Source of the DNA: an uncultured Actinomycetes bacterium
Lineage (GTDB): Bacteria; Actinomycetota; CADDZG01; JAHWKV01
DNA: 64,000 nucleotides
NCBI GenBank assembly: GCA_964501265.1
Contig: CAZCSK010000001.1
Span: 86,314-150,313 of the forward strand
Direction: 5' to 3'
In this document: piece after piece, positions 2,317 through 35,829 of the stretch
Layout of the letters: every line of letters begins with the position of its first letter
How positions within the stretch are numbered: position 1 is the stretch's first letter
Translations under genes and position numbers: made by a program
The notes under the pieces: model-generated
What the model was told of the DNA's origin: nothing
Databases searched by the model: none
Seen by the model: the letters and a program-made list of their open reading frames with translations, nothing else

Positions 2317-5300
2317 TCACGCCCACCTTAGCGTCGCCCACGGGGCGTACCCCCGCGAACCGGAGGGTGCACTCGCAACAGATTTCGGACACTTCCTCGT
2401 CCCGTTGGATGTCGATTTAGAACGGGGACGGCATGGGGCGTCGGTGATGGTGCCAATGCCCTCGGAATCGCTGATCGAGGCGTTCACAGCGGCGGCCAGG
2501 TGGACCTTAAAGGTCTCGTCATATTCAGAGGTCGTGTCGCTGTTGACGATCACAGTCACAGTCTGGGTCGTGGTGGTCGGCCCAAAGGTTAAGGTCCCCG
2601 ACGTCGCCTGATAGTCCGATCCGGCAGCGGCTGTCACGTCTTGGGTCGCGAAGGTGACCGTTGCGGTGACTTCGGTCGCTCCGGTCTTGGTGACGGTAAA
2701 GACCGCGGTGGTGGTGCCGGAGCTACCTTCGTTCACGGTAACGTCGTTGATGGCAAATGAGGGTTGGTCGTCGTCGTTGGTGATCGTTCCAACGCCTTGA
2801 GAGTCGGAAATCGTTGCATCGGTAGCTCCACTCAGGTTGACGAAGAAAGTCTCGCTAGGCTCGAAGGTGGCATCTGCGTTGACTGGGATGCTGACCGATT
2901 GAGTGGTTGTCCCAGGCGCGAAAGCGAGAGTGCCACTGGTGGATGCATAGTCCGCAGGCGACGTAGCGTCGGCGTCGGCCGTGGCGAAGTTCACGGTAAC
3001 CATTTGTCCGCTCGCAGTCGACAGCGCGACTGTGAAGGTCGCCGCCCCGGCACCCTCCTCGACCGTCACATCGTTGATCGAGATGGTCGGGCCAGGATCG
3101 TTGTCGGTGATCGTACCCACACCCTGGCCGGGCCCGCCGGCCGAGATCGTTGCGTTAGTTGGATTGGAGAGATTGACGATAAAGGTCTCATTTTCCTCGT
3201 CAAGACTGTCCTCGAGGATCGTAACGTCCACCGTAGTCGTTGTTTGCCCAGAGGCAAAGGTCGCCGTCCCGGTTGCCGCGGTGTAATCGAACCCTGCCGT
3301 CGCGGTCGCGTTCGCGGTGGCAAAATCCACCGTCGCCTCATCAGTCAGCGGCTGCGACAGCGAAAGGGTGAAGGTCGCCGTCCCGCTATCCTCGCCGACA
3401 GCGACATCCGTGATCGAGATCGAGGGCGGCGGCCCGACGATCACGGTCACCGTCGCGGTGTCCGTGCGACCCTCTGGAAGCTCTGAATCGGTGATCGTGT
3501 AGGTGAAGCTGTCGGTGCCGATGAAGTTCGAGTAGGGACTGTAAGTACAGACTCCAGCCTGGGTGCATGAGGCCGCGCCGTTGGCAGGCGGGGTAGAGGC
3601 GGTCACGGTGAAGGGATCCCCATCGGGGTCATAGTCGTTGTTCACTACGTTGATCGTGACCGGCTTGCCCTGGCGAGTGCCAGCCGAATCGTCCACGGCG
3701 TTGGGAGACCGGTTTGGAGCGGTTCTTGCGAACGGGAGTTCGCGCTGCGATTGAACGTCGTCCAGAAAACCTTCACCCTCAACCGTCGAGGGACATAGCC
3801 GGAGGGGCTTGAACTTCCACTGCTCGTACATTTCGAGCTGGTCGATGTAGTGGGCGGGATATGCGCTGTTCGCCTTCGGGTCCGAGGTGTCCGATTCATA
3901 TCTCAGCAAATCGGCCGCCGAGACGGGCGCGCCCTGGCCCGGGGGCAAGATCGAGAGGGCGTTGCAGGTTCCGATTTCAGATATGAAATTGTAAGAGGAA
4001 TGGTCGAAACCGTTCACATCCCGCACCGCGAGGGCCCCAAGAGCTCGGACCTCTATCGTGTTCACGGGTAGTTTGGGCAAGCTCGACAGATCCCCGGTCC
4101 CGGTCGGATCGAGGACATTCAATCCCTCGTCCAGGGCAGTCACTAACAACTCGTCCCAAGTTTCGACGGTCTCGGTAGTAGAGATGTTGTCGAAGTATTT
4201 GCGCGAGGGGGTGAGACCGGTGAAGGGCTCACGCGCGCGCGCGTGACGCAACCACCGCTCCAAGGGGGCTAGTTGCTCCTGCGACGTACCGATCGACGGC
4301 CGACCCGCCAACTCGTCGAATACGAGTGGATAGATGCGGTCCCAGACCGGTCCGGGTTTCAGCGTGCCCCCGTACACATCACTCGGCATGTCATCGGCAG
4401 CCCAGATGGCCAGCCCGGGCGCGTCGTAGAAACCGTCCCCGTTCCCGATCCCGTCCACGTCGACGCGAGCGAACCCGGACTCCGCCCAGTCGTGGAGTAG
4501 GCCCAGTGCTTCCTCCCGACGATCCTGAGCCGGAGTGGTCGGCGTGGAGCGCATCTCAACTGCCTCACTCATTGCGTCGACTAAGAATCCCACCAAAGGA
4601 TCGGTGTCGCAGCAAGCAAGACGGTTCACTACCTTCATTTCGGCGAAGCTCACAGTATCGAGTTCGTCGGCGTCGGCGAGAGACCGGACAATGTCTTCGG
4701 TGACGCCTCGGCGCTCCAACCGCCCAATACGCCATTCGTCTGAGGACGACCACCAACTAACCGGCTTTGAGTCCCATCCTTGATTCGCGACGAGAAACCC
4801 TTGGCTCGGGTTGCGAACGTGGGGATTGGGGATCAAACCCTCCTGCCACTCAAAATCGCTGGAGTGCCCTGGGGTGGGGAGTCGAAGGTCGAGTCCAGCG
4901 GCGTGGAGCTGATTGCGCCCCGAAAACCAGTAAGCGATGTTGCCTTCCGTGTCGGCGTACGGGATGTGAACGCTCCAGGAGGCCTCCTGGATCGCGTCGT
5001 TGGCCTCATCGATGGTTTGAGCCTCAGTTAGGTGGAAGAGACTGGCGAGGTTGTCGAGAACATGCCCTTCTTGCGCCCGCTTGCGAACGTACGCGACGTC
5101 ATTGTCTGGGTCGGTGCTGAAAACCGTTCCATGTAGTGATCGCTGGAATTCGCGCTCCTCAGTCGTGAACTCGGGCACCGTCGGACTGGTGGGATTGGTG
5201 TTGCGGACGAGGAATTGTTCCGTCCGACGCACGAAGGGCCGGGCATCATCATCGTATATGTAGAAGTTGTCAACGTCCGAGAGCTGCTCTATTACCACGT

Positions 5301-6393
5301 CGACTTGATCCCCGGCTGATCCGGCCACTATCGTCCACGCGTGGTGGCTGCACGTTCCATTTACGAGGAATGGCCCCGCCCCCGGAACTGCCGCGCCCGC
5401 GCAATCGATGCCCGGAGCATGCATCCCAACTTCCCACACGAGCGGCGGAGCGGCGATCCCAGACTGCGGTGCGCCAAGGAGCATGGCATTGCCGCTGGCC
5501 GATTGCGAGGGGCCTATTGCGACTCCATACGATCCAAGCTTGGGCAGCGCAGCATCGTCCATGACGCGCCCCAGCAATGCGTCCTGCGACTGGGTCATGG
5601 CCATCGGCAAGGGAAGATCCAAGAATGCGAGTTGAGAGGGGGGCGGAGTGCCGGGCGGCGACGTCAGAATGCTCGGCGCCGGCGGTGCATCGGAGTCAGG
5701 GATGACGGGCGTCGCGTCGGGGTCGTTGATCCAAAGCGTGTCGTCCCAAATACCATCGGCCTCGGCCGAAATGGCGCCGGCCTCGGCCGCGGGAAACCTG
5801 TCCTTCAGCTGGCCCAAGAACACTGCGTTCTCCAGCTCGCCGCCTCCGCCCCAGCCTCCATTATCGACACTTGTGAACAGCAGGGCGACGGCCGCAGAGT
5901 CGATCATGGTCCAAGGCTCGGGTTCGTAGCCGAGGGCCGCAAACTCCACGGGGCTTCGAGTGGGATCGGCGATAACCGCGGCCCACCCGGCGGTGATGCC
6001 GTTGGCGTAAGCATCCCAAAGTCCCCGCAGATCGGGATCCCAGTCGTCGATCTCGGCCTGGATGCGGCTCCTCTCGAAAAACTCCTGGCGCATGAGAATG
6101 TCCTCCTGGAGGAAGTCCCCCGTACCATCGTTATCCGCATCTTCGCCGGCCCCCAGAATCTCGGTCAGCCGCCCCTGGCCCGCCCGACGGTATACGTCTA
6201 ACTGAAAGGGCCGATCCTCAGCCAGCGAAAAACCCATGGCGTAGGCCAGGGCGTTCTGGGAAGGCGCGTCGATGTGCGGAACCCCGAAGGAGTCGCGGTA
6301 AACGGTGGCGAGTTCCGCCGGGGCTGCCAAGGTTGGCGATGGAAGCACAACAGTGATGAGCGTCAGCGCACAGAGAATCGCTGCCCCTCGCAC
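2317..6393 (-). CDS. Secreted penicillin-amidase-family (Ntn-hydrolase S45) protein with cadherin-like/VCBS-like segment and 4 C-terminal Calx-beta domains
   Basis: N-terminus has a signal peptide followed by VYRDSFGVPHIDAPSQNALAYAMGF…, the hallmark penicillin/AHL acylase motif. The C-terminal ~480 aa carry 4 repeats of …TFTVxLSxxSGQxVTVxFATAxxTATxxxDYxxxSGTLxFAPGTTTQxVxIxVxxDxxxExxETFFVNLSxATxATI…GxGTITxDD (Calx-beta-like), preceded by NNDYDPDGDPFTVTA…. Confidence 0.8.
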   Translation of the reverse strand: MRGAAILCALTLITVVLPSPTLAAPAELATVYRDSFGVPHIDAPSQNALAYAMGFSLAEDRPFQLDVYRRAGQGRLTEILGAGEDADNDGTGDFLQEDILMRQEFFERSRIQAEIDDWDPDLRGLWDAYANGITAGWAAVIADPTRSPVEFAALGYEPEPWTMIDSAAVALLFTSVDNGGWGGGGELENAVFLGQLKDRFPAAEAGAISAEADGIWDDTLWINDPDATPVIPDSDAPPAPSILTSPPGTPPPSQLAFLDLPLPMAMTQSQDALLGRVMDDAALPKLGSYGVAIGPSQSASGNAMLLGAPQSGIAAPPLVWEVGMHAPGIDCAGAAVPGAGPFLVNGTCSHHAWTIVAGSAGDQVDVVIEQLSDVDNFYIYDDDARPFVRRTEQFLVRNTNPTSPTVPEFTTEEREFQRSLHGTVFSTDPDNDVAYVRKRAQEGHVLDNLASLFHLTEAQTIDEANDAIQEASWSVHIPYADTEGNIAYWFSGRNQLHAAGLDLRLPTPGHSSDFEWQEGLIPNPHVRNPSQGFLVANQGWDSKPVSWWSSSDEWRIGRLERRGVTEDIVRSLADADELDTVSFAEMKVVNRLACCDTDPLVGFLVDAMSEAVEMRSTPTTPAQDRREEALGLLHDWAESGFARVDVDGIGNGDGFYDAPGLAIWAADDMPSDVYGGTLKPGPVWDRIYPLVFDELAGRPSIGTSQEQLAPLERWLRHARAREPFTGLTPSRKYFDNISTTETVETWDELLVTALDEGLNVLDPTGTGDLSSLPKLPVNTIEVRALGALAVRDVNGFDHSSYNFISEIGTCNALSILPPGQGAPVSAADLLRYESDTSDPKANSAYPAHYIDQLEMYEQWKFKPLRLCPSTVEGEGFLDDVQSQRELPFARTAPNRSPNAVDDSAGTRQGKPVTINVVNNDYDPDGDPFTVTASTPPANGAASCTQAGVCTYSPYSNFIGTDSFTYTITDSELPEGRTDTATVTVIVGPPPSISITDVAVGEDSGTATFTLSLSQPLTDEATVDFATANATATAGFDYTAATGTATFASGQTTTTVDVTILEDSLDEENETFIVNLSNPTNATISAGGPGQGVGTITDNDPGPTISINDVTVEEGAGAATFTVALSTASGQMVTVNFATADADATSPADYASTSGTLAFAPGTTTQSVSIPVNADATFEPSETFFVNLSGATDATISDSQGVGTITNDDDQPSFAINDVTVNEGSSGTTTAVFTVTKTGATEVTATVTFATQDVTAAAGSDYQATSGTLTFGPTTTTQTVTVIVNSDTTSEYDETFKVHLAAAVNASISDSEGIGTITDAPCRPRSKSTSNGTRKCPKSVASAPSGSRGYAPWATLRWA

Positions 6394-6473: not shown

Positions 6474-9400
6474 TCACAGGAGGAAGTCCCAGAGGTTACC
6501 CGTTCGGTCCAGCACCACGCCGGCGAACGAACTGGGCAGATCAAACGCTTTGTAGCTATCCACTCCCACGGTGTAAGGATGGCTGGCAGCGACAGCGGTC
6601 ACGGCTCCGAACGGGTGGATGCCGCCGTAGCCGTCGAGCACGTAACCCGAGTTCGGCTCGTTCGTTAGCAGCGCATCGTTGGCGATGTCGTTGCCAGCGA
6701 AGTAAGGCAGCCCTGTCAGTGCAGCCGCGCCGTTGACCGGGTGCATGCCGCCGTAGCCGTCCAGGATGTACCCAGGTGAGTCTCCCGTCGCGGGATCCTG
6801 CAGCACCAGCTCACGTGCGATGTCGATGCTGAAGTAAGGCCCGGGCACAGCACCGTTCCCGCCGAACGGGTGGATTCCACCACGACCGTCGAGCATGTAT
6901 CCGCCGTCATAGTCTTGCTCCTGGTTGTAACCGGTCAGGACCACGTCCCTTGCGATGTCGTTGCCGGGGAAGTACGGAAGTCCCTGGATTGCGTTCGGCG
7001 TGGTTCCGCTGAGGGTGCGGAACGGGTGCATACCGCCCCAACCATCGAGGACGAATCCGCCTGACACGTCGCCATTCTGGTCTTCAAGTAGGACAACTTC
7101 GCGTGCGATGTCGAAGTTGGGGAAGTAGGGCAGTCCCGTGACCGCTTCAGCCGCACCTACGGGGTGCAGCCCTCCGTATCCATCGAGGATGTACCCGCTG
7201 CAACTGTCGAACATCTCCACGTCTCGTGCGATGTCGCCCGAGAATGTGGGCTCGTTATACGGACCACATGAAGCGTTGGTTATCGTGCCCACGCCCTGGG
7301 GGTCGGAAATCGTTGCGTTGGTTGCCCCACTTAGGTTGACGAAGAAGGTCTCGTCGGGCTCAAACGTCGTATCTGCGTTAACCGTGATGTCGACTGTTTG
7401 GGTGGTCGTCCCAGGAGCGAAGATAAGCGTGGTCGTGACGACAGCCGTGTAGTCCAGCGGTGCTGTGGCTGTGCCGTTAGCCGTCGCATAATCAACAGTG
7501 ACGGTCTGACCACTGGGTGAGCCAAGAGTCACAGTGAAGGTGGCGGTGGTGGTACCCGCCGTGGGCTCCGCTACCGTCACGTCGTTGATGGACAAGCCGG
7601 GGGAGGCGGGAGGGTCATTGTCATTGATCGTGCCGACTCCCTGACCATCCAGGATTGCTGCGTTCACCGCGTTGGAAAGGTTGACGAAGAAGTTCTCGCT
7701 TGGCTCGTCCAATGCGTCATCCACGACCGAGACGTTGACCGTCTGCGTGGTTGCCCCGGGCGCGAATGTGACCGTGCCGGTAGCAGATGTGTAGTCCGCC
7801 GGTGCCGAGGCAGTGCCGTTGGCCGTCGCATAGTCGACGGTGACGGTCTGAGCGCTGGGCGCGGAAAGAGTCACCGTGAAGGTAGATGGCCCAGCTCCCT
7901 CGGTGACCGCCGGCGCGTCATTGATAGACAGAGTGGCGGTAGCTGGGTCGTTGTCGTTGATCGTGCCCACACCCTGACCATCAAGGATCGATGCGTTCGT
8001 CGCGTTGGAGAGGTTGACGAAGAAGTTCTCGCTGGGCTCGTCCACTGCGTCATCCACGACCGAGACGTTCACCGTCTGGGTGGTTGCCCCAGGCGCGAAC
8101 GTGAGAGTGGTGGTGGCAACGGCTGTGTAGTCCGCCGGTGCGGTGGCGGTGCCGTTGGCCGTCGCATAATCGACGGTCACTGTCTGACCGCTGGGGGCGG
8201 ACAGAGTCACCGTGAAGGTAGCTGGTCCGGCTCCCTCGGTGACCGCCGGCGCGTCATCGATGGACAAAGTGGCAGTAGCTGGGTCGTTGTCAGTGATCGT
8301 ACCCACGCCCTGACCATCAAGGATCGTTGCGTTCACCGCGTTGGAGAGGTTGACGAAGAAGTTCTCGGTTGGCTCATCCAATGCGTCATCCACGACCGAA
8401 ATGTTGACCGTCTGGGTGGTGGTACCGGGCGCGAATGTAGCCGTTGCAAGGGTAACGGCTGTGTAGTCCCCCGGCGCCGCGGCAGTGCCGTTGGCCGTCG
8501 AGTAGTTGACCGTTACCTCCTCGCTAATTGCTCCCGACAGCGTGATCGTGAAGGTAGCCGGGCCCCCGCTCTCGCTGACCGACGGAGCGTCGTTGATCGA
8601 GATCGTAGGCGCCATCACGTAGCCATTAAGCAGGTCGTGGCCGAGGAAGCAGCCGTTGGAGCAGGAATCCGCCGCGGTGATGTTCCCATCGCTGTTCAGG
8701 TCCACGAGACCGTTGTTGGCGGCGGCGGGAGGGTTCGCGAATCCACAGGGATTCGTGTTTCCTGCCGTGTTACCGAGGATGTCGGCCCCATCCGTCATGT
8801 CGCCGGCCCCGGCGTCGACCGTCTCACCGATGAGCCCGAAGTGACAGTCGTTGGCGTTGATCATCTCGTTGCCGTCAGAGTCCACCCGACCGCTGATGGC
8901 GGACCAAGCGAAGTCAGAGTCGCCGACATCCGGATTATCGGGATCACCGGCGTTAAAGACGGTGGGCAGCGGTCCATCGGCCACCTGAAACTCGCCGTCT
9001 ACGACATCGATCGTTACCCCATCGACGGTGCCGTCGTATCCGATGAGGGTGCAGTCGTCGCTGGCGTTGATTACGCCGTCGCCAGCGGCACCATCATTGT
9101 CAACGGTCCAGGCGTTGCAATCCAGGTATCCGTCGATGATGTGGGTGTCGCCGTAAAACGCGTTTGAGTCGTCGCGTCCAGTGACGGTGCCGCTACCGTT
9201 TAGGTCGGCCCGTCCGCCGATAATCGTCGGCGACAGCCCGCCCGTGTATACACCTGCGGGAGGCGGCGGCGGCGGCGCAGGAGCCACTGGCCCAGGAGAC
9301 TGCACGTAGCCGTTTGTAAGGTTGTGTCCGAAGAAACAGCCGTTGGTGCACGAGTCCGCGGCCGTGATGTCTCCGTCGCTGTTAAGGTCCACGAGCCCGT

Positions 9401-10693
9401 TGTTGGCTGGGTCCGGGGAGTTCGCGAACCCACATGGGTTCGTGTTCCCAGGGTCATTTCCGAGGATGTCGGCTCCGTCCGTGGCGTCTCCGAGCCCGGC
9501 GTCGACCGTCACACCGATGAGCCCGAAGTGACACTCATTGGTGATTATCTCGTCGCCATTGGAGTCCACCCGGCCGCCAATCGCGGACCAAGCGAAGTCA
9601 GAGTCGCCGACATCGGAGCTATTCGGATCGTCAGCGTTGAAAACGAAGGGCAGCGGTCCGTCGGCCCACTGGAACTCGCCGTCTACGACGTCGATCTCTG
9701 CCCCATCTGGGGTGCCGTCGTATGCGATGAGAGTGCAGTCGTCATTGGCGTCGATCACGCCGTTGCCGGCGTCCCCGTCGTTGTCGGACGTCCAGGCGTT
9801 GCAGTCGAGCTTGCCGTCGATGATGTGGGTATCGCCGTAGAACGCGTTCGAGTCGTCGCGCCCAGTGACGGTGCCGTTACCGTTTAGGTCGGCCTCTCCG
9901 CTGAAGACCGTCGGGGAGAAACCTCCCGTGTAAGAACCCGCAGGAGGTACGGGGGCCGCGGGTCCAGGAGACTGCACAAAGCCGTTAGTTAGGTTGTGGC
10001 CGAAGAAGCAGCCGTTGGTGCACGAGTCGGCGGCGGTGATGTTCCCGTCGCTGTTCAGGTCGACAAGACCATTGTTGGCTTCGGCGGGAGCGTTCGCAAA
10101 ACCACATGGGTTCGTATTCCCCGCGGTATTCCCGAGAATGTCGGCCCCATCGTGGGGGTCTCCCAGTCCGGCGTCGACCGTGTCGCCAATGAGCCCGAAG
10201 TGACAGTCGTTAGCATTGATCGTCTCGTTGCCATCGGAATCCACCCTGCCGCTAATCGTGGACCATGCGAACGCAGAATCGCCAACGTCAGGGTTGTTCG
10301 CGTCCCCGGCTTGGGGAAAGACGGTAGGAAGCGGGCCGGCCCATTGGAACCCACCGGCTACCACGGTAATTGTGACGCCACCTGGCGTGCCGTTGTATCC
10401 GACGAGCGTGCAGTTGTCGGCGGTTGTGATCGTTCCATCTCCGCCGCTGCCATCGTTGACAGACCCCCAATCGTCGCAGTCGAGCCCGCCGTCGATGATG
10501 TGGGTGTCGCCGTAAAACGCATTCGAGTCGTCGCGACCGTTACCCACGCCGTCACCGTTGAGGTCGGCATTTCCGTTCAGGACCGTCGGGGAGAAACCTC
10601 CCGTGAAGTCGGCTGCTGAAGCGGGGCTCGCCAGGAAGAACTGCCCTTGCAGGATCAACAGGGTGAGGACGCTGGTAAGTGCAACAGACTTCA
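6474..10693 (-). CDS. Giant secreted repeat protein: 3x ~228-aa Ca-binding-loop repeats, 4x Calx-beta, C-terminal 5x 'LDGxGGxHP…DIAR' repeats
   Basis: Signal peptide MKSVALTSVLTLLILQG…ASAADF (ATG at 10693, preceded by aagga). Three near-identical units begin …YTGGFSPTV… and contain DLNGDG / VDLNSDGNITAAD loops. Calx-beta units follow (…VTVDYATANGTATAPADYTA…). The C-terminus has repeats GYILDGYGGLHPVG…PYFPNFDIAREVVL. The ORF-track start at 10739 is probably an upstream extension. Confidence 0.8.
7290..8535. repeat. Tandem Calx-beta-encoding repeats (~330-nt period) within the giant gene; homologous array at ~2400-3700 in the amidase-family gene
   Basis: Repeated protein units …GPATFTVTLSAPSGQTVTVDYATANGTATAPADYTAV…NFFVNLSNATNASILDGQGVGTINDNDP…. 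Confidence 0.7.
8510..10560. repeat. Three tandem near-identical ~680-nt DNA repeats inside the giant gene (encoding the 228-aa Ca-binding unit)
   Basis: Antisense ORFs at 8637, 9324 and 9996 have near-identical translations (MAEEAAVGAGIRRGDVPIAVQVHE… / MSEETAVGARVRGRDVSVAVKVHE… / MAEEAAVGARVGGGDVPVAVQVDK…). This gives a period of ~672-687 nt. Confidence 0.8.
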
Positions 10694-11000
10694 TCCTTGG
10701 GGTGTGCGTTACTTCTGAGGAGCGGTTCCTTCTAAACATCTAGTGTTCCCCTTTCGTAGGAGACCAAAGTTATTGGACAAACGGTTTCTGCCCAGACATT
10801 ACCGAGCTCAAACAATTTTCCTTTGTGATTTGTCTTCGTGATTGCCTGACCCTAGTGGAAATTGTCGCTTTTTGTCAAGTTTGAGAAGTGCCCCCCGGCC
10901 AGCCTCGCTGCCTGCCCTATCCTCCCGAGGAAGTCCTCCGGCTGGTAGCCTCTTGATTTCCTCCCAATTTAGGCCAAATCGTAGGAGTAAGGGCAAGAAA

Positions 11001-11729
11001 ATGAAGCTTTCTGTGGTCATCCCGGTCTTTAACGAGGAACGGACGCTGGACGAGATCCTCGCCCGCGTTGACGCCGATCCAGTCGACAAGGAGATCATCC
11101 TCGTCGACGACGCCTCAACCGACGGGAGCAGAGATCGCCTAAAGGAAATCGAACGAACCAAGGGCAACGTCATTGTTCTCTACCACGACCGCAATATGGG
11201 GAAAGGGGCGGCGCTGCGGACCGGGTTCGAAGCGGCGAGCGGTGATGTAATTGTTATCCAGGACGCCGACCTCGAGTACGATCCGCGGGACTATGCAACG
11301 CTTCTGCAGCCGATAATAGAGGGGAAGGCGGACGTGGTTTTCGGTTCGCGGTTCCTCGGCGGCCCCCACCGAGTCTTCTTCTTCTGGCACTACCTCGGCA
11401 ACAGGTTTGTGACATTGCTATGCAATGTATTCAGCAATCTAAACTTGTCGGACATGATGACTTGCTACAAGGTATTCCGGCGTGAAGTGATAAATGACAT
11501 CACGCTGCGGTCCAATCGGTTCGGTTTCGAGCCGGAGTTCACCATCAAGGTCGCCAAAAGAGGCTACCGAATCTATGAAGTTCCCATCAGTTACGCAGGG
11601 CGCAGTTACGAGGAAGGAAAGAAGATCACCTGGAAGGACGCTTTCAGGGTAACTTGGACGATCTTTCGAACGGCTTTGTTCGACCGCGCACCTGGGGTAA
11701 AGAGGCGGTCGTACCTGGGAGGCTCTTAA
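11001..11729 (+). CDS. GT2 glycosyltransferase, Dpm1/ArnC/GtrB-like polyprenyl-phosphate sugar synthase
   Basis: [20 protein letters not shown]…[10 protein letters not shown]…[11 protein letters not shown]… The DAD/DxD motifs and C-terminal region are typical of polyisoprenyl-phosphate glycosyltransferases. SD aggag lies 8 nt upstream of ATG 11001. Confidence 0.8.
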
Positions 11730-11738
11730 GGTTCACGG

Positions 11739-12527
11739 ATGCAATATTTAGAGAGCTCGCGCCTGTCCCAGATATGGGCCGCAAGACAACTCCTTAAGAA
11801 CCTCACCGTACGCGAACTAAAGATTCGCTATAAGCGGTCGGCGCTTGGATTCCTGTGGAGCCTGCTGAACCCTCTTCTAATGATGGCCGTCTTCACGCTG
11901 GTCTTTGGGGTCGCCTTCGACATCGGCATTAAGGACTTCCCCATTTTCTTCCTTGTTGGCTACTTGCCTTGGTCGTTCTTTCAGGCTTGCGTTCAGGTTT
12001 CGACCGGCATCATCGTGGGTAACGCAAACCTTGTTAATAAGGTCTACTTTCCCAGAGAAACACTGCCCCTCGCCGTTGTTTTGAGCCAGCTTGTGCACTT
12101 CGTGCTCGCGATGGGGGTTCTGTTCGTCGCTCTAGCGGTCAAGGGGTACGCCTTCCTTCCTTACCTTCCCAGCCTGTTACTTGCGATTGTCTTGCTCGTT
12201 GGACTTTCGACGGGGATATCGATGCTGATGGCCGCAGCGAACACAAAGCTGCGGGACATCCAAGAGTTTCTCAACGTTTTGTTTCTCGTCTGGTTCTACA
12301 TGACTCCGGTGATCTACCCCCTTGACCGGATTCCCGCAAGATTTAGATGGATTATTGAGTTAAATCCCATGACGCAGATCGTCGAGATAGTGCGCGACAG
12401 CCTGTACAGGCTCACCTATCCATCTTGGCAGCGGATCGCAGCAGCCACGGCGGCGGCAATCGTATCTATGATCGTTGGCTTCGTGGTGTTCGGACGGCTC
12501 GCCGACGACTTCGCCAAAGAGGTTTGA
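11739..12527 (+). CDS. wzm: ABC-2 type polysaccharide exporter permease (Wzm/TagG/KpsM family)
   Basis: 262 aa with 6 TM segments and an ABC-2 signature region (…LWSLLNPLLMMAVFTLVFG…), followed by an ATPase gene. Confidence 0.8.
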   Translation: MQYLESSRLSQIWAARQLLKNLTVRELKIRYKRSALGFLWSLLNPLLMMAVFTLVFGVAFDIGIKDFPIFFLVGYLPWSFFQACVQVSTGIIVGNANLVNKVYFPRETLPLAVVLSQLVHFVLAMGVLFVALAVKGYAFLPYLPSLLLAIVLLVGLSTGISMLMAAANTKLRDIQEFLNVLFLVWFYMTPVIYPLDRIPARFRWIIELNPMTQIVEIVRDSLYRLTYPSWQRIAAATAAAIVSMIVGFVVFGRLADDFAKEV

Positions 12528-12570
12528 GCTGACCCTTCCAATAGGCGCTGTTTCGGTCCGAGACGTCTCG

Positions 12571-13731
12571 ATGAACTTTCGGATCTACCACGATCGCGCT
12601 ATAGGAATTAGGGACCGACTAGTTGGAAGACGGCGAAAACGGCCGGAGGAATTCCTAGCCCTTCGCAACGTCAATATCGAAGTGCAGCCTGGCGAAACGG
12701 TGGCCCTCATCGGCCCCAACGGATCGGGCAAGTCGACACTGCTCAAGTGCATCGCCCGTATCATGAAGCCCACCAGCGGAGAGATCCTTTTGAGCGGACA
12801 GACCGCAGCCCTGCTAGAGCTAGGCGCTGGATTTCATGGCGATCTAACGGGCCGGGAAAACGTGTATCTGAATGCGTCGATCCTGGGTTTTGCTCGCAAA
12901 CGCGTAGATGAGATTTTCGACGAGATAGTGGCATTCGCTGAGCTCGAAGATTTCATCGATACGCCGGTTCGCAATTACTCGTCAGGCATGTATGTGCGAC
13001 TGGGTTTCGCTGTGGCGGTCAATCTGTCCCCCGAAATATTTTTGGTCGATGAGGTTCTTGCGGTTGGGGATGCTCGCTTTCAGCAGAGGTGCTTCGATCG
13101 CATTCGCCAGCTTCAACGTTCGGGTACTACTATCGTTCTGGTCACTCATGATCTCGACGCAGCCGCCAACATCTGCCGGACTGCCGTGCTGCTGAACAAG
13201 GGCGAAGTGGTCAAAACAGGAGTAAGCCATCTAGTCGTGGACGCCTATAGGGATCTGGTCGCCGAAAGCGGAGTGCATGAACCTACCGGCTGGACTGGAG
13301 GACCCGTACACGGAAGTGGGGAGATGACCGTAACCAACGTCCGGCTCGAATCTAACGGAGATGACCCCTTGTTGAATTCCGGTGATGAGTTCGCCATTTG
13401 TTTCGATGTTGAGACCCACGTGGCTGTCGAGGACCCCGTCTTCGGGATGATCATTCGAGGGGTTGACGGAACTTACTTGTTCGACACCAACACCCTCTGG
13501 CGGCACCAAGCTACCGGCCGATTCGACAAGGGCCAACGCTCGACTGTGAGATTCGAGCTGAAGGCCAACATCCTTTCTGGGCTTTACCTAGTCACTGTGG
13601 CTGCATCAAACTCAGATGGCCGGAGCCCTTACGACTGGCATACCGACGCCCTCGCCTTCGAAGTCCGGGGGCCGGCCCACTCGGCTGGAGTGGCGGATTT
13701 GGGTGCGCATATCAGTGTAAGGAGCACTTGA
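12571..13731 (+). CDS. wzt: ABC polysaccharide exporter ATP-binding protein (Wzt/TagH family) with C-terminal carbohydrate-binding-like extension
   Basis: Walker A GPNGSGKST, LSGG-type signature YSSGMYVRL, Walker B FLVDE. The extra ~150-aa C-terminal beta-rich domain resembles the Wzt C-terminal glycan-terminus-binding domain. Start placed at ATG 12571. Confidence 0.8.
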   Translation: MNFRIYHDRAIGIRDRLVGRRRKRPEEFLALRNVNIEVQPGETVALIGPNGSGKSTLLKCIARIMKPTSGEILLSGQTAALLELGAGFHGDLTGRENVYLNASILGFARKRVDEIFDEIVAFAELEDFIDTPVRNYSSGMYVRLGFAVAVNLSPEIFLVDEVLAVGDARFQQRCFDRIRQLQRSGTTIVLVTHDLDAAANICRTAVLLNKGEVVKTGVSHLVVDAYRDLVAESGVHEPTGWTGGPVHGSGEMTVTNVRLESNGDDPLLNSGDEFAICFDVETHVAVEDPVFGMIIRGVDGTYLFDTNTLWRHQATGRFDKGQRSTVRFELKANILSGLYLVTVAASNSDGRSPYDWHTDALAFEVRGPAHSAGVADLGAHISVRST

Positions 13732-13732
13732 A

Positions 13733-14590
13733 ATGAGCGATAAGGAAAATTTCGAGAGCGACTACTACGCGTCGAGGTCCTTCGATGAGCAGCACTTGCG
13801 CAAAGTGCGTTCTCACTACTTGAAGTTCTTCAACGGCCGTCGATTCCTCGTTGAACTCGGATGTGGCCGCGGAGAGTTCTTGAAAGACTCCACCGAAATA
13901 GTCGATCGCGCGCTTGGAATCGACATTGAGCCCGCAATGGCCGAGGCTGCAAGAGAGCGCGGACTGGAGGTACACGAAGGCGACGCTCTCTCTTACCTGC
14001 GAGAAACCGCCGACCGACCTGACGCCGTGTTCGCAGCACACCTCGTGGAACACTTCAGCGTCGACGACACCTTTGAGCTGCTACGCGCGGCGGCCAACAT
14101 CATGGAACCCGGCGGAGTCGTCGTGCTCGTGACCCCAAACCCATACTGTCTGGCGGTCATGCTGAGTGACTTCTGGAGCGACCCCACCCATGTCCGCCCC
14201 TACACAACGGCTCTGCTCGAGTTCCTTGTCAAACAAGCCGGCTTCGTCGTCATTGAATCGGGTGCGAATCCACTCGACGTACCCGGGCCTCCGCCGGAGT
14301 TGATCGTACCCGAGACGATGGAGGGATGGGGCCCCCTAGAAACCCATCCTCTTCCGGATCTACCGGAGTACAAAGGCTCCATAAGCCGCAGAGTTGATGA
14401 GAGGCTCGAATTCCTTCTACAACGAACCAACGATATCAACCAAACTTTCGCCGCCGTCACAGAAGCCATCCAACGCCGAGTCGATGAGCTGCGACACCAA
14501 ACTCATCTGGCGACCATCGGGGTCAACAACGCACTGAAATACCTCTACGGCCCTAACGAGATATACATCGCCGCAGAGCGCCCCGCTTGA
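13733..14590 (+). CDS. Class I SAM-dependent methyltransferase
   Basis: Motif I LVELGCGRGEF, with downstream acidic and hydrophobic motifs. Translationally coupled to wzt (stop and start 1 nt apart). Confidence 0.7.
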   Translation: MSDKENFESDYYASRSFDEQHLRKVRSHYLKFFNGRRFLVELGCGRGEFLKDSTEIVDRALGIDIEPAMAEAARERGLEVHEGDALSYLRETADRPDAVFAAHLVEHFSVDDTFELLRAAANIMEPGGVVVLVTPNPYCLAVMLSDFWSDPTHVRPYTTALLEFLVKQAGFVVIESGANPLDVPGPPPELIVPETMEGWGPLETHPLPDLPEYKGSISRRVDERLEFLLQRTNDINQTFAAVTEAIQRRVDELRHQTHLATIGVNNALKYLYGPNEIYIAAERPA

Positions 14591-15930
14591 GTCCCCGGGT
14601 CCGCGTGGTCGTTCTTAACTACAACGGCGGCGACTTTATCCTTCGATGTCTTGAGCATCTGACGCTCATCGAGTGGCCGACGGACAGACTCGAAATCGTC
14701 GTGGTCGACAACGCCTCCAGCGACGGCAGCCCATCCCGGATCAAAGCGCGCTTCCCCGACATCGCCGTCCGCGATGCCGGAGGGAACCTCGGGTTCGCGG
14801 GCGGCAACAATGTTGGGCTACAGGATCTGGCTGACATCGATTACGTCGCTCTCCTCAACAACGACGCCTTTGTGGAAGCAAACTGGCTCGCGCCGCTTGT
14901 GAGGGAGTTGGAAAAGGATCCGGGCCTGGGTGCCGTCAACTCGAAGATCGTGTTTTCGTATTCATACGCCGACCTAGCGATCACTTCCGAAACCTTCACC
15001 CCTTCAGAAGGGGACGGACGGTCGCTCGGACTCCGGATAAGCGGGGTCCGCGTGGATGGAGAGGACCGCTTTCGCAAGGCACATTTCGTCGAGGGATTCT
15101 ACGGACCCGAGCATGGCGGGAAAGAAGAAGTCGACTTTCAGTGGACGGGTGCCAAAGCCTTGCTCCGCATCCCAGTCACTCCGGGCCGGACTGAGTCTGA
15201 GTGCGAGCTGCGAGTCGCCGCCGAACGTACCAAGGCAGTTGGATTCTCCACTGAGGACGGATCACGGGAGTACGAAGTTACGCCGACTCCGACCTGGGTC
15301 AAAGTTCCTCTCCCCAAACGCGCGCACGATGTGATCAATAACGTCGGTTCCGAGCTTGTCGTGAGGGGTTACGGGGGCGACCGCGGTTTTCTTGCGCGCG
15401 ACGTTGGACAGTTCGAGGAACCGGCTGAAGTCTTCGCGTGGTGCGGTTGCAGCGCTTTATTCAGGAAGGCTTATCTGGAAGATGTGGGGTTGTTCGATGA
15501 ACATCTCTTCCTTTATTACGAGGACTTTGACCTGTCTTGGCGCGGACGCCGAAGAGGCTGGCGTTATCTCTACGTTCCCGATTCAGTCGTCCGGCACTTT
15601 CACACGGCAACAAGCCAGGAGAACTCGCCGCTCTTCCAGCACTTCGTTCATCGCAACAGGATGCTCGTACTCATCAAGAACGCGCCAGCTTCGCTAGCTC
15701 TTCAGGCGATCACTGCCTACGTTTGGACCACGATCATTCATGCAATCAACGAGATTCTCCTACCGACAATCAAGGGTCGCAGGCCCTCACCAGGAACCAC
15801 ACAGCGAAGGTTGCGGGCCTTCGCATCTTTCATTCGCCTCGTGCCGTGGGCGCTTCGGGAACGGATGCGTATCTCCCGAACCGCAAGAGTCAGCGCGGCG
15901 AAGTTGATGGAATGGGTCGTCGAGAGATGA
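14587..15930 (+). CDS. GT2 family glycosyltransferase (rhamnosyltransferase-like)
   Basis: VRVVVLNYNGGDFILRCLEHL…IVVVDNASSDGS…GGNNVG… The C-terminal region is typical of WbbL/GT2_3-like enzymes. Confidence 0.75.
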   Translation: MSPRVRVVVLNYNGGDFILRCLEHLTLIEWPTDRLEIVVVDNASSDGSPSRIKARFPDIAVRDAGGNLGFAGGNNVGLQDLADIDYVALLNNDAFVEANWLAPLVRELEKDPGLGAVNSKIVFSYSYADLAITSETFTPSEGDGRSLGLRISGVRVDGEDRFRKAHFVEGFYGPEHGGKEEVDFQWTGAKALLRIPVTPGRTESECELRVAAERTKAVGFSTEDGSREYEVTPTPTWVKVPLPKRAHDVINNVGSELVVRGYGGDRGFLARDVGQFEEPAEVFAWCGCSALFRKAYLEDVGLFDEHLFLYYEDFDLSWRGRRRGWRYLYVPDSVVRHFHTATSQENSPLFQHFVHRNRMLVLIKNAPASLALQAITAYVWTTIIHAINEILLPTIKGRRPSPGTTQRRLRAFASFIRLVPWALRERMRISRTARVSAAKLMEWVVER

Positions 15931-17474
15931 AGGTCGCGGTTTACGACCGCTACTGGGGCACCGCCGGAGGAGGAGAAAAGGTGGCGGGAGGGGCAGCTCA
16001 GGTTCTATCGGACGAACATGAAGTCTTCCTACTTGGAAATGAACCGATCGATTTACAAACTCTGCAAGAAAGACTCAACCTCGACCTTCGTCGTGTTCAG
16101 ACCCACATCTTTGACGACACCGGAAGCGGAGCTTTGACGGCCGCAACCGAAAAGTACGACCTGCTGATCAATTGCTCTCACTTAAGCGCCGATCCGTGCG
16201 GCGCGGCCCGCGGCATCTACTATGTCCACTTCCCGACACCCTTCGACCACCACATCGGCGCGCCGCAACGAGCCGCGGTAAAGCTCCTGCGCCCCTTCGT
16301 GAGACCGAGGGGGGTCACCTTGGATTGGGGAAATGGATTCCACCTGCCTGAACAGTTCCGCCTGCGGAGATATAGATGGACGTCCGAAAAGGCCTATCTA
16401 AAGATCAGCGCACCCGAGGGGCGGCGAGCGGAAATTCATCTGACGCTTGGGGCACACAAGCCCGCCGGGTTGGAACCCGCCTATGTGAATATCGATGTGG
16501 ACGGCCGGATGGTGCGAGAACTCGAGGTGGGGCGCAAACCCATTCGTGTCGACCTCGAAACATATGGCCAGGGCGCAAACAAGCCGTCGGTAATCGGGAT
16601 AACCAGCACTGTCTTCGTTCCAAGCGAGGTAGTTGGGGGATCAGACATGAGAAGGCTCGGCGTGCAGCTGCTCTCCGTTAGGGTCGGAGATGGGCTGGGC
16701 TCACGAATAGCGGCTGCCTACCCTCTACTCGCAACCCCACCGGTGTCCCTCGACTTCCTTTCCAGCTACGACCGGGTAGTTGCAAACTCCGAGTTCACTC
16801 GCCGATGGGTCGCTATCCGGTGGGGCAGAGACAGCGATCTGCTGTATCCCCCCGTTACTGCCATCGAACCCGGACAGAAGTCGCCGGTCATCCTCTCCGT
16901 GGGACGTTTCTTCGACCGCAAACACGGCCACTCGAAGAAACAGTTGGAGCTTGTCCGCGCGTTCGCCACAATGCACCGCTCCGGCCTTCGGGGGTGGGAA
17001 CTTCATTTGGCGGGTGGGGTCAGCGACGACCAGCGGGAGTACCTCCACAAGATTGAGCGCGAAGCACACGGGCTGCCGGTTCACATCCACATCGATGCCT
17101 CCGGCACGCAGCTGCGAGAGCTCTACTCGAGGGCCAGCATCTTCTGGCATGCGACCGGATTGGGAGAAACCGCAGAGCGCACTCCTCATCTTATGGAGCA
17201 CTTCGGGATATCAACCGTGGAGGCGATGTCTGCCGGAGCGGTGCCCGTTGTGATCGCGAAGGGTGGGCAGCCGGAGATCGTGCAAGAGGGCGTGAGTGGA
17301 TTCTTGTTCGCAGATCTTGAGGAACTCGTTGCGAAGACACACCGGATCATCGAAGACCCAGACATGACGCAGCGCGTGTCGTCAGGCGCCAGAGCACGAT
17401 CTGCCGAGTTCAACATCGAACATTTCGGCGCGCGCTTGAAGGGAATCATCGACCAGATCATCATGTCGGCGTGA
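15927..17474 (+). CDS. GT4 (GT-B) glycosyltransferase with ~180-aa inserted domain; paralog 1 of a tandem pair
   Basis: Start MKVAVYDRYW… (ATGA overlap with the upstream stop). The C-terminal GT4 half reads VGRFFDRKHGHSKKQLELV…EHFGISTVEAMSAGAVPVV… The ORF-track N-terminal extension (15537) overlaps the previous gene and was rejected. Confidence 0.7.
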   Translation: MKVAVYDRYWGTAGGGEKVAGGAAQVLSDEHEVFLLGNEPIDLQTLQERLNLDLRRVQTHIFDDTGSGALTAATEKYDLLINCSHLSADPCGAARGIYYVHFPTPFDHHIGAPQRAAVKLLRPFVRPRGVTLDWGNGFHLPEQFRLRRYRWTSEKAYLKISAPEGRRAEIHLTLGAHKPAGLEPAYVNIDVDGRMVRELEVGRKPIRVDLETYGQGANKPSVIGITSTVFVPSEVVGGSDMRRLGVQLLSVRVGDGLGSRIAAAYPLLATPPVSLDFLSSYDRVVANSEFTRRWVAIRWGRDSDLLYPPVTAIEPGQKSPVILSVGRFFDRKHGHSKKQLELVRAFATMHRSGLRGWELHLAGGVSDDQREYLHKIEREAHGLPVHIHIDASGTQLRELYSRASIFWHATGLGETAERTPHLMEHFGISTVEAMSAGAVPVVIAKGGQPEIVQEGVSGFLFADLEELVAKTHRIIEDPDMTQRVSSGARARSAEFNIEHFGARLKGIIDQIIMSA

Positions 17475-19093
17475 AGATCGCCGTCTACAACCGCTACTGG
17501 CAGACCCTCGGAGGAGGCGAACGGTACACCGGTTCCGTGGCCCAGGCGCTCGCGGCAAAACATGACGTGACCTTGCTCACCAACGATCCCCTGGACCTCG
17601 AACTCATCAGCGAACGCCTTGACCTCGACCTTTCGGGGGTTCGCGTCCAACAGATCACCGATGCAGGACGACTGGCACTAAAGCGCGCCACCGAAAGCTT
17701 CGACCTTTTTGTCAACTGCTCCCATCTGAGTGAAGATGCCAACGGAGCGCGTCGTGGGATCAAGATGGTCCAGTTTCCGACTGCTCATCTAACTTTCCTC
17801 CAGCACCTAAACATCAGGCTTTTGGGGCGCTTCGTAAGATCACGTCAGGCACGTCTGGAATGGGGGGTTGGTTTCTATCCACCCGAAGGAAACTTGCTCA
17901 GAGCCTATCGCTGGACCAGCAGCGAGAGAGTCGTATTAAGGGTCTTCGCGCCGCTGGACGAAGAAACTGAGCTGTCGCTACTTATAGGTTCGCGGCCTAA
18001 GGATGCAGGTTCGGATTCGATCAAAGTCGAAGTCGACGGGGTCAATCTGGCAATGGTCCCTTGGAGTTTCACGGGTGGGACGCGCGTCCGCGTTTCGGTG
18101 CGCGGCCTTGGGCTGGATTCGCCCGTCGAGGTGATCCTTCGTAGCGACACTTTTGTTCCAGCGGAGATTGGCCTGGGAAATGACATACGCAGACTTGGGT
18201 TTCCCTTGCTGTCGGTCAGAGTTGGTAAGCGAATCACCGGAAATCCGCGTTTCAAAGACCTAGCGTCGTTCGCGGCCCCCAGACCTGTCGAGGCCATCGA
18301 CGGCGCGCTTGGTACTGTCGGACTCAGGCTCGGATGGCAATACCCCTACCTTCGCGAGCCCAAACCAAATCTCGGCGACCATCTGGATACCTACGACCGG
18401 GTCGTCTCCATTTCGGAGTTCACCCGGAAGTGGGTCAAGATTCGATGGGATCGCGATAGTGACATCCTCTATCCGGCGGTTCCCCAGATTCCGGGGAGAG
18501 CCAAGGAGAACATCATCCTGTCAGTGGGAAGGTTCTTCGATCGCAAGCACGGACACTCGAAGAAACAACTCGACATGGTGCGCGCATTCAGATCGATGAT
18601 CGAAAGGGGCCTCGGCGGATGGGAACTGCATCTTTGCGGGGGCGTTAGCCCTGAGCAAGTTGAATACCTGGATCGTGTACGCGAAGAGGCGGAGGGGCTT
18701 CCAATTCGTATCCACGTGGACGTTTCCGGAGAGGTTCTGAAGGACCTTTATTCGCGCGCAGCGATCTATTGGCATGCCACCGGATTAGGTGAGAAGGAAT
18801 CGAAAGACCCACACCTGTTCGAACACTTTGGAATAACTACCGTCGAAGCGATGTCCGCGGGGGCGGTGCCGGTCGTGATTGGGAAGGCAGGTCAAATTGA
18901 GATCGTGACAGACGGGGTGGACGGCTTTCACTTCCAGAATCTCGGAGAGTTAGTCGGCAAGACAATGCGATTGATCCAAGATGAGGCGCTCCGCAGATCG
19001 TTATCACAGGCCGCGATCCATCGAGCGAAGGATTTTGCCATCGAGCGCTTTTCCGAGCGACTCGAAGAGATCGTGCAACAAGTAGTCGGGTAA
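17471..19093 (+). CDS. GT4 (GT-B) glycosyltransferase with inserted domain; paralog 2
   Basis: MKIAVYNRYW…VGRFFDRKHGHSKKQLDMV…EHFGITTVEAMSAGAVPVV… ~50% identical to the upstream gene. GTG start overlaps the upstream stop. Confidence 0.7.
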   Translation: MKIAVYNRYWQTLGGGERYTGSVAQALAAKHDVTLLTNDPLDLELISERLDLDLSGVRVQQITDAGRLALKRATESFDLFVNCSHLSEDANGARRGIKMVQFPTAHLTFLQHLNIRLLGRFVRSRQARLEWGVGFYPPEGNLLRAYRWTSSERVVLRVFAPLDEETELSLLIGSRPKDAGSDSIKVEVDGVNLAMVPWSFTGGTRVRVSVRGLGLDSPVEVILRSDTFVPAEIGLGNDIRRLGFPLLSVRVGKRITGNPRFKDLASFAAPRPVEAIDGALGTVGLRLGWQYPYLREPKPNLGDHLDTYDRVVSISEFTRKWVKIRWDRDSDILYPAVPQIPGRAKENIILSVGRFFDRKHGHSKKQLDMVRAFRSMIERGLGGWELHLCGGVSPEQVEYLDRVREEAEGLPIRIHVDVSGEVLKDLYSRAAIYWHATGLGEKESKDPHLFEHFGITTVEAMSAGAVPVVIGKAGQIEIVTDGVDGFHFQNLGELVGKTMRLIQDEALRRSLSQAAIHRAKDFAIERFSERLEEIVQQVVG

Positions 19094-29589: not shown

Positions 29590-29616
29590 CTCAACGGACG
29601 GTAGATTAGCGCCGTG
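29590..29616 (+). promoter_or_regulatory. Putative leaderless-type promoter: -10 TAGATT, 6-nt spacer, GTG start codon
   Basis: cggTAGATTagcgccGTG read directly. The same arrangement and flanking sequence recur at 35803-35829. Confidence 0.4.
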
Positions 29617-31239
29617 GAGACAAGCTCCAAGAAGGGGTTCGGGATGTCAGACATCGGCATCAGAATACCGGATGCAGACAGGCACCGGCGCAAGATCGTC
29701 GCCGGGTTCTTCGCGCTACTGCTACTTCTCGGGGTTGCGATCTTCAACGACTTCGGAGTCTCCTGGGACGAGCCGGATTACTATCGCTACGGCCACCTCG
29801 TTCTGGATTTCTTCACCGGTGGGGGTCGGCAGTTCGAGACTTTTCTGAACCTCAGGCTCTACGGACCGGTCGTCCCAGTGGTCCAGGCAATCGTCGCAAA
29901 TGTGTTTGATCTCTCGCCCGGACAAGCCTTTCCCGGGGCTCACCTGGTTAACTACATCATCTTCTTGGCCGGGGCAGTTGCCTTCTACCACCTGTGCCTT
30001 CTGCAATTCGAAAGCTGGAGATGGGCACTTTTGGCTACTGCGATGCTCTTCTTGTCGCCTCGCATCTTCTCGCACGCATTCGTCAATCCAAAAGACGGAC
30101 CCTTTCTTGCCCTGTTTACGATCAACATCTACTTGCTGGTTCTCTTCCTCGAGAAACGCAAACTATTCCTCATTCCTCTGCTTGGCCTAACCACTGCGCT
30201 TCTAATCGATATTCGAGTAGCAGGGTTCCTAATTCCGGCCCTCGTGACGGTTGCGCTCGCGGCCGACGCGCTCACTGCGTCCGGTCGCCGTTTCCTGAAA
30301 TCGCTCTTGCCTCATCTCGGCCTCTACTTACTCGTGGTGGTCCCGACGGCGTTGGCGTTGTGGCCGTTTCTCTGGCCCAACCCGATTGGCCGGTTGGGCG
30401 AGTCGATGAGTTTGATGAGCAACTTCGTAGGGGGCCCCGTCGTCGCCGTTTACATGGGAATGGCACACGAGACGACCAGCCTGCCCTGGCATTACCTGCC
30501 GGTCTGGATTGGGATCACCACGCCCCCTGCTTACCTGGTGCTGGCTTCGGTCGGCCTTGTCTCGGGCTTGTGGCGAAATCCCATCGCGGCCTTTCGGACA
30601 CATTCGAAGGACCGTCATTTCTTCCTGTACGCGGCCTGGCTCCTTGCGGTTCCCTTGGCCATCATTGTCAGCGGAGCAAATCTTTACGACGAGTGGCGTC
30701 AGGTTAATTTCATCTATCCCGCGATGCTGATATTTGCCATCGCCGGTGCGAGATCGATCTACCTGCGTCTTGGCCGACAGAGGAACGTTGGACATCTTTT
30801 GCGCGTCGGGTTTGCGGCGGGCCTGGTAATCGTTATGGCATCCGTGGGGGTTCGCATGATTTCGCTGCACCCCTACGAGGCTCTCTACTTCAACTCACTC
30901 GCAAGGGGAGGAGATCGCGTGGAGAACAATTTCGAACTCGACTACTGGGGCATCTCATACAAGGAAGGACTCTCCTACCTGCTATCGCATTATCCTGGAC
31001 AACTCAAGGTTTATGGCTGCACAGCTCCTGCGGCCCACAACTCAATCTTGTTCGAAGATCGCGCGCGGCTCGAGTTCGTTTCGAAAGAAGATGCCGAATT
31101 CGGGCTGTGCGCCCCTCGGGAGTATTTCCTCGGATATGGGGGGGGCCGGGATGTGTATCTTTCGGAGTATCCGACGCTTTACAGCGTCGAGCGCGACGGA
31201 GCGACGTTCCTCTACGTGAAGGATCTAAGGGGCGCCTGA
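29614..31239 (+). CDS. Polytopic membrane protein, GT-C fold, GT39/ArnT/PMT-like (putative polyprenyl-P-sugar dependent glycosyltransferase)
   Basis: METSSKKGFGMSDIG…; ~11 TM helices and an acidic first extracytoplasmic loop (…VSWDEPDYY…) reminiscent of GT-C DE/DD motifs. Confidence 0.55.
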   Translation: METSSKKGFGMSDIGIRIPDADRHRRKIVAGFFALLLLLGVAIFNDFGVSWDEPDYYRYGHLVLDFFTGGGRQFETFLNLRLYGPVVPVVQAIVANVFDLSPGQAFPGAHLVNYIIFLAGAVAFYHLCLLQFESWRWALLATAMLFLSPRIFSHAFVNPKDGPFLALFTINIYLLVLFLEKRKLFLIPLLGLTTALLIDIRVAGFLIPALVTVALAADALTASGRRFLKSLLPHLGLYLLVVVPTALALWPFLWPNPIGRLGESMSLMSNFVGGPVVAVYMGMAHETTSLPWHYLPVWIGITTPPAYLVLASVGLVSGLWRNPIAAFRTHSKDRHFFLYAAWLLAVPLAIIVSGANLYDEWRQVNFIYPAMLIFAIAGARSIYLRLGRQRNVGHLLRVGFAAGLVIVMASVGVRMISLHPYEALYFNSLARGGDRVENNFELDYWGISYKEGLSYLLSHYPGQLKVYGCTAPAAHNSILFEDRARLEFVSKEDAEFGLCAPREYFLGYGGGRDVYLSEYPTLYSVERDGATFLYVKDLRGA

Positions 31240-35802: not shown

Positions 35803-35829
35803 CCCGGTGAGCGGTAGATTGAGACCGTG
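35803..35829 (+). promoter_or_regulatory. Second copy of the TAGATT-N6-GTG leaderless-type promoter
   Basis: gcggTAGATTgagaccGTG. The flanking ~60 nt are conserved with 29560-29616. Confidence 0.4.

Follow-up and report, generated by a model that had tools for sequence, protein, structure and literature searches.

We analyzed a 64,000-nt window, the whole stretch from position 86,314 to 150,313 of contig CAZCSK010000001.1 (assembly GCA_964501265.1), from an uncultured Actinomycetes bacterium. The gene under study, hereafter the target, is the open reading frame (ORF) 6474..10739 on the minus strand, which a program-made ORF list gives as 1421 aa plus a stop codon. From the N to the C terminus, its product carries a signal peptide, three units of ~215 aa (U1, U2 and U3) linked by Pro-rich segments, four Calx-beta domains, and a repeat module of 262 aa (Table 1). 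An earlier, sequence-only reading of this DNA had described a giant protein with three near-identical calcium-binding repeats; at its actual length, the protein is large rather than giant. We find that the units are not near-identical, that the C-terminal module is confidently predicted to be a beta-propeller, and that the whole probably represents a modular protein displayed on the cell surface.

The first ATG of the ORF (10739) is the more likely start codon because a Shine-Dalgarno-like sequence, GAAAGGGGA at 10755-10747, precedes it and ends 7 nt upstream. The second in-frame ATG (10694-10692, Met16), close to which the sequence-only reading had set the boundary of the gene (10693), has a poorer Shine-Dalgarno. 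As expected for a Sec-type exported protein, and in agreement with the earlier claim of secretion, the translation opens with a putative signal peptide; the homologues of the units have comparable N-termini. Searching the protein for sorting signals, we found no LPXTG motif (pattern L[PA]xT[GAS]; the C-terminus reads ...DRTGNLWDFLL), no C-terminal membrane anchor, and no type I secretion system (T1SS)/RTX or GlyGly-CTERM signal. A promoter and terminator scan of the locus gave nothing above shuffle expectation. The protein is identical to the library protein P0242.

The three units lie in tandem and in frame, with start-to-start distances of 672-687 nt, which bears out the ~680-nt spacing reported before. 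The linkers between them, SPGPAAPVPPAGS and SPGPVAPAPPPPPPAGV, are Pro-rich. The claim of near-identity, however, did not survive comparison. Pairwise protein identity of the units is 74-79%, and pairwise DNA identity is 74-81%; even the closest pair, U2 and U3, reaches 79% in amino acids and 81% in nucleotides. Identity at third codon positions is 55-67%, and the longest exact run common to two units is 25-32 nt. Using the Nei-Gojobori method, we obtained dS (synonymous divergence) values of 0.66-1.13 and dN/dS (nonsynonymous to synonymous) ratios of 0.15-0.21. Sliding 60-nt windows across the unit pairs gave a maximum identity of 92%. With such figures, no recent gene-conversion tract is seen between the units. 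The top-matching repeats within the gene are the Calx-beta copies 2 and 3 (87% aa, 86.5% nt, dS 0.43), not the N-terminal units.

These numbers bear directly on the proposal that recent unequal crossing-over made the locus a hot spot of copy-number, phase or size variation, like that of variable adhesins. The tandem in-frame layout with its regular period agrees with this idea. The three units also form their own clade in a neighbour-joining tree, hence a lineage-specific triplication, and the unit count varies among species (1, 2 or 3). Recent exchange is nevertheless hard to reconcile with the synonymous and third-position divergence, the short exact runs, the absence of any window above 92%, and the purifying selection on each copy. 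Moreover, foreign units match the units of the target as well as these match each other; the nearest foreign ones are 75-79% identical to them, compared to 74-80% among the three. A search for strain-level relatives brought no support either: the target protein is the sole member of its 90% cluster, the exact-gene look-up was empty, and scanning metagenomes with the U3/Calx junction yielded only relatives of the Calx-beta part or of the unit on their own, with no close ortholog. We regard recent crossing-over as very improbable. Judged by their sequences, the triplication is lineage-specific, because the three units form a separate clade, but it is old. Since foreign units are as similar (up to 79%) as internal ones, the resemblance of the units reflects an old duplication followed by strong purifying selection, that is, mainly constraint and not recency.

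The near-identity had also been argued from antisense ORFs over the three copies. We find that such ORFs do exist on the plus strand (8637-9167, 9324-9887 and 9996-10619) and lie in one shared frame relative to the sense codons, but their mutual identity is only 49-61%. Equivalent antisense ORFs occur in 31 of the 34 homologous loci of other genomes (L001-L034). Because they are so widespread, we take them as shadow ORFs, a by-product of codon composition in G+C-rich coding sequence, rather than as genes.

We also considered whether the repeat array could be an assembly artefact, either because the repeats were collapsed or expanded or because paralogous single-unit genes were joined into a chimera. 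The contig is evidently metagenome-derived, the homologues mostly have a single unit, and the target protein is a singleton, all of which would fit. However, the copies differ at 19-26% of nucleotides, that is, one in four or five, and an assembler would easily resolve them; this makes an artefact unlikely. In addition, the frame is intact across distinct Pro-rich linkers, the contig spans 228 kb, and contigs of long-read scale (0.2-0.9 Mb) independently carry two-unit proteins of like layout. An artefactual array is thus extremely improbable.

Examining the units themselves, we find six conserved cysteines at unit positions 44, 66, 135, 168, 196 and 200, the same in every unit, in line with the conserved Cys pairs of the sequence-only reading, together with invariant aromatic and Gly/Asp positions. 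Each unit contains DLNGxG and VDLNSDGxITAAD loops; in all, a unit has four loops, of which three are canonical 12-residue ones of EF-hand/dockerin type (DxNxDGxIxxxD) and one is non-canonical. Scanning aa 45-712 with the strict pattern D.[DN].[DNS]..[ILVT]...[DE], we obtained eight matches, against 0.24 ± 0.5 in 2000 shuffles. Seven of them fall at loop sites (two in U1, two in U2 and three in U3), while the eighth, DANDDCTLIAYD (U2, aa 330), is not at a loop position. The three units together are strongly acidic, with 102 Asp and Glu against 8 Lys and Arg.

The earlier description of the loops as dockerin- or EF-hand-like therefore holds at the level of the motif, but not at the level of the domain family. 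The Dockerin_1 model (PF00404) scores 20.8 bits on the whole protein, under the gathering cut-off of 22.9, and 14.4 bits on U2 alone, where the aligned part is one loop of ~20 residues. Weak Dockerin_1 matches appear in all 14 unit-family members examined (best E = 1.2e-5). For the EF-hand hidden Markov models (HMMs; PF00036/PF13202), the best E value among the same 14 members was 0.018 (EF-hand_5), well short of the cut-offs; the canonical 12-residue EF-hand loop is present in the units as a motif only. No Pfam or NCBIfam family matched the unit above cut-off, and PDB sequence and profile searches gave chance matches only. Aligning the N- and C-terminal halves of the unit by hhalign recovered just the loop motif of ~22 residues and no internal duplication. 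The target showed no Pfam match to RTX (PF00353) and no GGxGxD motif. Building an AlphaFold2 (AF2) model of U2 on 43 fairly similar sequences, we obtained a structure of moderate quality, with beta-strands after loop 1 and helical turns of just 3 residues. Calcium binding by the units is plausible and a reasonable inference, because the loop motifs are above chance, the composition is acidic, and the Dockerin_1 and EF-hand models match weakly.

The same loops raise the question of whether the units are dockerin-like docking modules that bind a cohesin-type partner in a calcium-dependent manner. The protein would then be part of a surface assembly system rather than an adhesin for an external ligand. 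Consistent with this, Dockerin_1 is the only Pfam family matched throughout the members examined, and one homologue (P0003) has a precomputed PF00404 match. The conservation between species (median identity 70%) is unusually high for an extracellular domain and would fit a conserved protein partner, and one homologue of the C-terminal propeller (P0203) bears a cohesin domain (PF00963). On the other hand, the match of the target stays under the Pfam cut-off and spans a single 20-residue loop. Where a dockerin would have loop-helix pairs, the model, which is of moderate quality, shows beta-strands. The unit is also three times as large as a dockerin and has six cysteines to stabilise it, and Pfam scans of 22 window ORFs found no cohesin. 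A docking role of this kind is quite unlikely in our judgment.

Outside the window, the unit is a conserved and mobile extracellular domain family that has no Pfam model. At the 90% identity level, homologous clusters numbered 327 with U2 as the query and 275 with a profile built from divergent members. Among species-representative genomes, 34 loci contain the unit: 33 are in soil Actinomycetota metagenome-assembled genomes (MAGs), several of them Gaiellaceae, and one is in a genome binned as Candidatus Limnocylindria. The usual family member has 340-385 aa, with a signal peptide, one unit and then RTX repeats. The unit is elsewhere combined with Big/TIG and RTX, with Calx-beta and RTX, or with FG-GAP-like repeats. 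In the proteins and loci collected, one full unit is present in 141 and two in 13, and three are found in the target only. Multi-unit proteins in the RTX-dominated library search were P0242, P0254, P0274, P0292, P0320, P0333, P0347, P0349 and P0366. That profile search, covering a library of 1.84 billion representatives, used an alignment with RTX tails and returned 213,127 matches, mostly giant RTX proteins; the number is therefore uninformative on the size of the unit family. Around the unit genes of the 34 loci, we found only shadow ORFs and, in 8-11 related genomes, a locally shared gene order, with no candidate partner. Literature searches found nothing on the unit or the propeller module.

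Most relatives of the unit (P0005, P0013, P0036, P0062 and others; L001-L023), found in Actinomycetota, begin with a Sec-type signal peptide and end in RTX nonapeptide repeats, and an ECPG(F/Y)xGDPRN junction is conserved between unit and RTX block. Classically, RTX repeats belong to the cargo that Gram-negative bacteria export by type I secretion. Divergent units also lie inside large Cys-rich extracellular proteins (L028, 2395-8748; L030, 4279-7404; L034, 4345-7470; 2118 and 1042 aa), one of which has an (APFGK)n low-complexity tract. They are 44-50% identical to U2 by tblastn and 50-60% to U3 in the unit alignment, and the poorly modelled segment (residues ~135-160) is shortened in them.

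Downstream of the units, the switch to Calx-beta domains that had been read from the sequence is confirmed by a strong Pfam match (Table 1). Tandem Repeats Finder reports a period of 336, 3.3 copies and 81% matches for this region. The adjacent gene (2317-6393, minus strand) encodes a 1358-aa secreted protein of the penicillin-amidase family (Ntn hydrolase) with a Big_9/cadherin-like domain, three Calx-beta domains and no propeller. Its second Calx-beta domain shares 70% identity with the fourth Calx-beta domain of the target, a resemblance that points to an exchange of modules by the two genes.

The C-terminal module consists of about six repeats of ~43 aa with the motif GYxLDGxGGxHPfG...PYf.g.DIAR, in each of which His, Asp and Arg are conserved. 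Its AF2 model is all-beta and compact (predicted local distance difference test, pLDDT, 93.2; predicted template modelling score, pTM, 0.90), and its strands of at least 3 residues fall into six groups of three. Performing a Foldseek search against the PDB, we find that all 39 matches with E < 1e-3 are beta-propellers. The module is thus confidently predicted to fold as a compact, roughly six-bladed beta-propeller. The module that ends the protein is indeed shared, as the sequence-only reading had stated. Its motif occurs in four window ORFs: the target, 19134-21878 (SpoIID/LytB), 24170-26059 (Amidase_2) and 38931-40757 (with four CarboxypepD_reg domains). Its homologues (n = 513), from Actinomycetota and Dormibacterota-type MAGs, are fused to CHAP, Peptidase_M23, GH18, C39-like peptidase, CAP, TIG, fn3 and cohesin domains. 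The module has no Pfam or NCBIfam match, none to SLH, LysM, CWB1/2, SH3b, GW or LGFP at E <= 0.1, and PDB sequence and profile searches gave chance matches only.

A repeat module that sits on both autolysins and surface proteins, beside a wall-glycan locus, is a classical sign of non-covalent wall targeting. Because the propeller module is common to autolysins and surface proteins and adjoins a wall-glycan locus, it is most likely a non-covalent cell-wall-targeting domain, as far as we can infer from its distribution. Alternatively, the propeller could be an enzyme, for instance a lactonase-like hydrolase, or a binder of a soluble ligand, with the protein released to the medium. Its highest TM-scores are indeed to six-bladed calcium-dependent hydrolases, the lactonase Drp35 (TMq 0.61) and then DFPase (0.46-0.49). 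The conservation of His, Asp and Arg in each blade and the secreted penicillin-amidase-family hydrolase next door would suit such a role as well. However, sequence identity to the lactonases is 8-13%. The conserved residues recur per blade, as in multivalent lectin-type propellers, and do not form a single central active site. The module also accompanies a wide range of catalytic domains with no relation to one another, most of them peptidoglycan hydrolases (SpoIID, Amidase_2, CHAP, M23, GH18), which is the pattern of a targeting domain. We consider an enzymatic or soluble-ligand role rather unlikely.

We favour the reading of the target as a Sec-exported modular cell-surface protein with a propeller anchor, a Calx-beta stalk and a head of three calcium-loop units derived from an old tandem duplication, and we hold it to be probable. 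Going by where homologues occur, the host is probably a soil actinobacterium of the Gaiellaceae/Thermoleophilia type. The propeller would keep the protein non-covalently on the cell wall, at peptidoglycan or a wall glycopolymer. The four Calx-beta domains may act as a calcium-stiffened spacer that projects outward. At the distal N-terminal tip, the protein would present three acidic, disulfide-stabilised domains of ~215 aa, which most likely bind Ca2+ and serve as a multivalent ligand-binding or adhesive part. The three units probably stem from a tandem duplication long ago within the lineage, with each copy then under purifying selection. The high conservation of the unit between species suggests a conserved target, such as a common polymer or a protein partner. 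Several observations weigh against this reading. The dockerin and EF-hand scores of the unit are under the Pfam cut-offs, and the AF2 model of U2 is of only moderate quality, with a pLDDT of 66.5 overall and of less than 50 over residues 119-177. By TM-score, the propeller comes closest in structure to the hydrolases named above, and no protein examined other than the target has both unit and propeller.

A more far-reaching reading takes the unit and the propeller jointly: both would be modules not described before, and would serve a lineage-specific system of surface display in soil Actinomycetota that are uncultured and in neighbouring phyla. The propeller would be a new non-covalent wall anchor that recognises the glycopolymer of the adjacent Wzm/Wzt locus. 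The unit would be a Ca2+-dependent binding domain of a new type, perhaps one for docking in the manner of a dockerin, and its unusually strong conservation between species would reflect a conserved partner. We put this forward tentatively, as a possibility that is doubtful at present.

Upstream of the target, in divergent orientation, lies an ABC-transporter-dependent glycan pathway (Table 1). After it come the SpoIID-propeller gene, a YfhO-like membrane protein (21808-24186) and the Amidase_2-propeller gene. In the envelope-glycan region, the ORFs 29614-31239 (+), 31268-33316 (-), 35827-37590 (+) and 37808-38815 (+), of 335-682 aa, had no Pfam match at E <= 1e-5.

Table 1 Features of the target gene and of propeller-related and glycan genes in the window.
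Feature	Residues (aa)	Position	Strand	Evidence or remark
Signal peptide	1-43	10611..10739	(-)	Basic n-region, hydrophobic core VALTSVLTLLILQGQFFLA, ASA|AD cleavage-type motif; read from the translation
Unit U1	45-258	9966..10607	(-)	Unit HMM, 354.6 bits
Pro-rich linker after U1	259-269	9933-9965	(-)	
Unit U2	270-483	9291..9932	(-)	Unit HMM, 371.2 bits
Pro-rich linker after U2	484-497	9249-9290	(-)	
Unit U3	498-712	8604..9248	(-)	Unit HMM, 383.0 bits; joined directly to the first Calx-beta domain
Four Calx-beta domains		7275..8603	(-)	PF03160, 262.4 bits (cut-off 27), E = 5.3e-79, four stretches
Calx-beta C1		8268-8603	(-)	
Calx-beta C2		7932-8267	(-)	
Calx-beta C3		7599-7931	(-)	
Calx-beta C4		7275-7598	(-)	
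C-terminal module (262 aa), predicted propeller	1160-1421	6477..7262	(-)	DNA repeat families D6, D8, D11 and motif scan
Propeller repeats in another ORF		20600-21400	(+)	
Propeller repeats in another ORF		24250-24950	(-)	
Propeller repeats in another ORF		40150-40700	(+)	
Glycan pathway		10842-19093	(+)	In order: GT2, Wzm (ABC2_membrane), Wzt (ABC_tran + Wzt_C), methyltransferase, GT2, two GT1

The claim of a hot spot of near-identical repeats, which was the source of the initial interest, fails. We are left with a modular envelope protein from a lineage of soil actinobacteria about which little is known, and the finding opens no long-standing question. Its value is descriptive, as it brings out two domain families with hundreds of metagenome members that have neither a Pfam model nor a solved relative. 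Of more interest are the propeller, which is a candidate for a new wall anchor, and the calcium-loop family, which has no Pfam model. Family definitions would improve the annotation of Gaiellales-type genomes, and they could reveal a new principle of wall anchoring in uncultured monoderm bacteria.

Comparing the target with known systems, we find its nearest relatives in the single-unit proteins annotated as Ca2+-binding RTX toxin-like (P0013, P0036, P0062; ~340-385 aa), which come from the same phylum and habitat. Like the target, they place a six-Cys, Asp-rich unit straight after the signal peptide, and this unit is 61-73% identical to U2. They differ in having one unit, rarely two, followed by PF00353 repeats, whereas the target has three units, four Calx-beta domains and a propeller, and no RTX repeats. 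With type I dockerins and EF-hands (PF00404, PF00036), the units have the 12-residue DxNxDGxIxxxD loops in common. In the target, however, these loops are set in a much larger, beta-rich, disulfide-containing domain, for which a model of moderate quality predicts no paired loop-helix geometry. Calx-beta arrays (PF03160) are known from surface proteins and adhesins; the target has four in tandem as its central part and the adjacent gene has three, but the N-terminal head and the C-terminal module of the target are in no described family.

The propeller follows the same logic as SLH, CWB2, LysM, SH3b, GW and choline-binding repeats, that is, a module found on autolysins and surface proteins beside a wall-glycopolymer locus. 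It differs from them in its fold, which is predicted to be a compact beta-propeller, and it has no sequence match to them. The term "beta-propeller" is absent from two reviews of monoderm wall-binding domains (PMC5817068, PMC6403190). The size-variable adhesins of the Rib/alpha C, Esp and Bap types resemble the target in having in-frame tandem repeats of several hundred nt. Their repeats are typically almost identical in DNA, in contrast to the 74-81% DNA identity and dS of at least 0.66 among the units of the target. In summary, a modular, calcium-dependent, wall-associated surface protein with diverged tandem domains would be of a familiar kind, while the combination of its modules is new.

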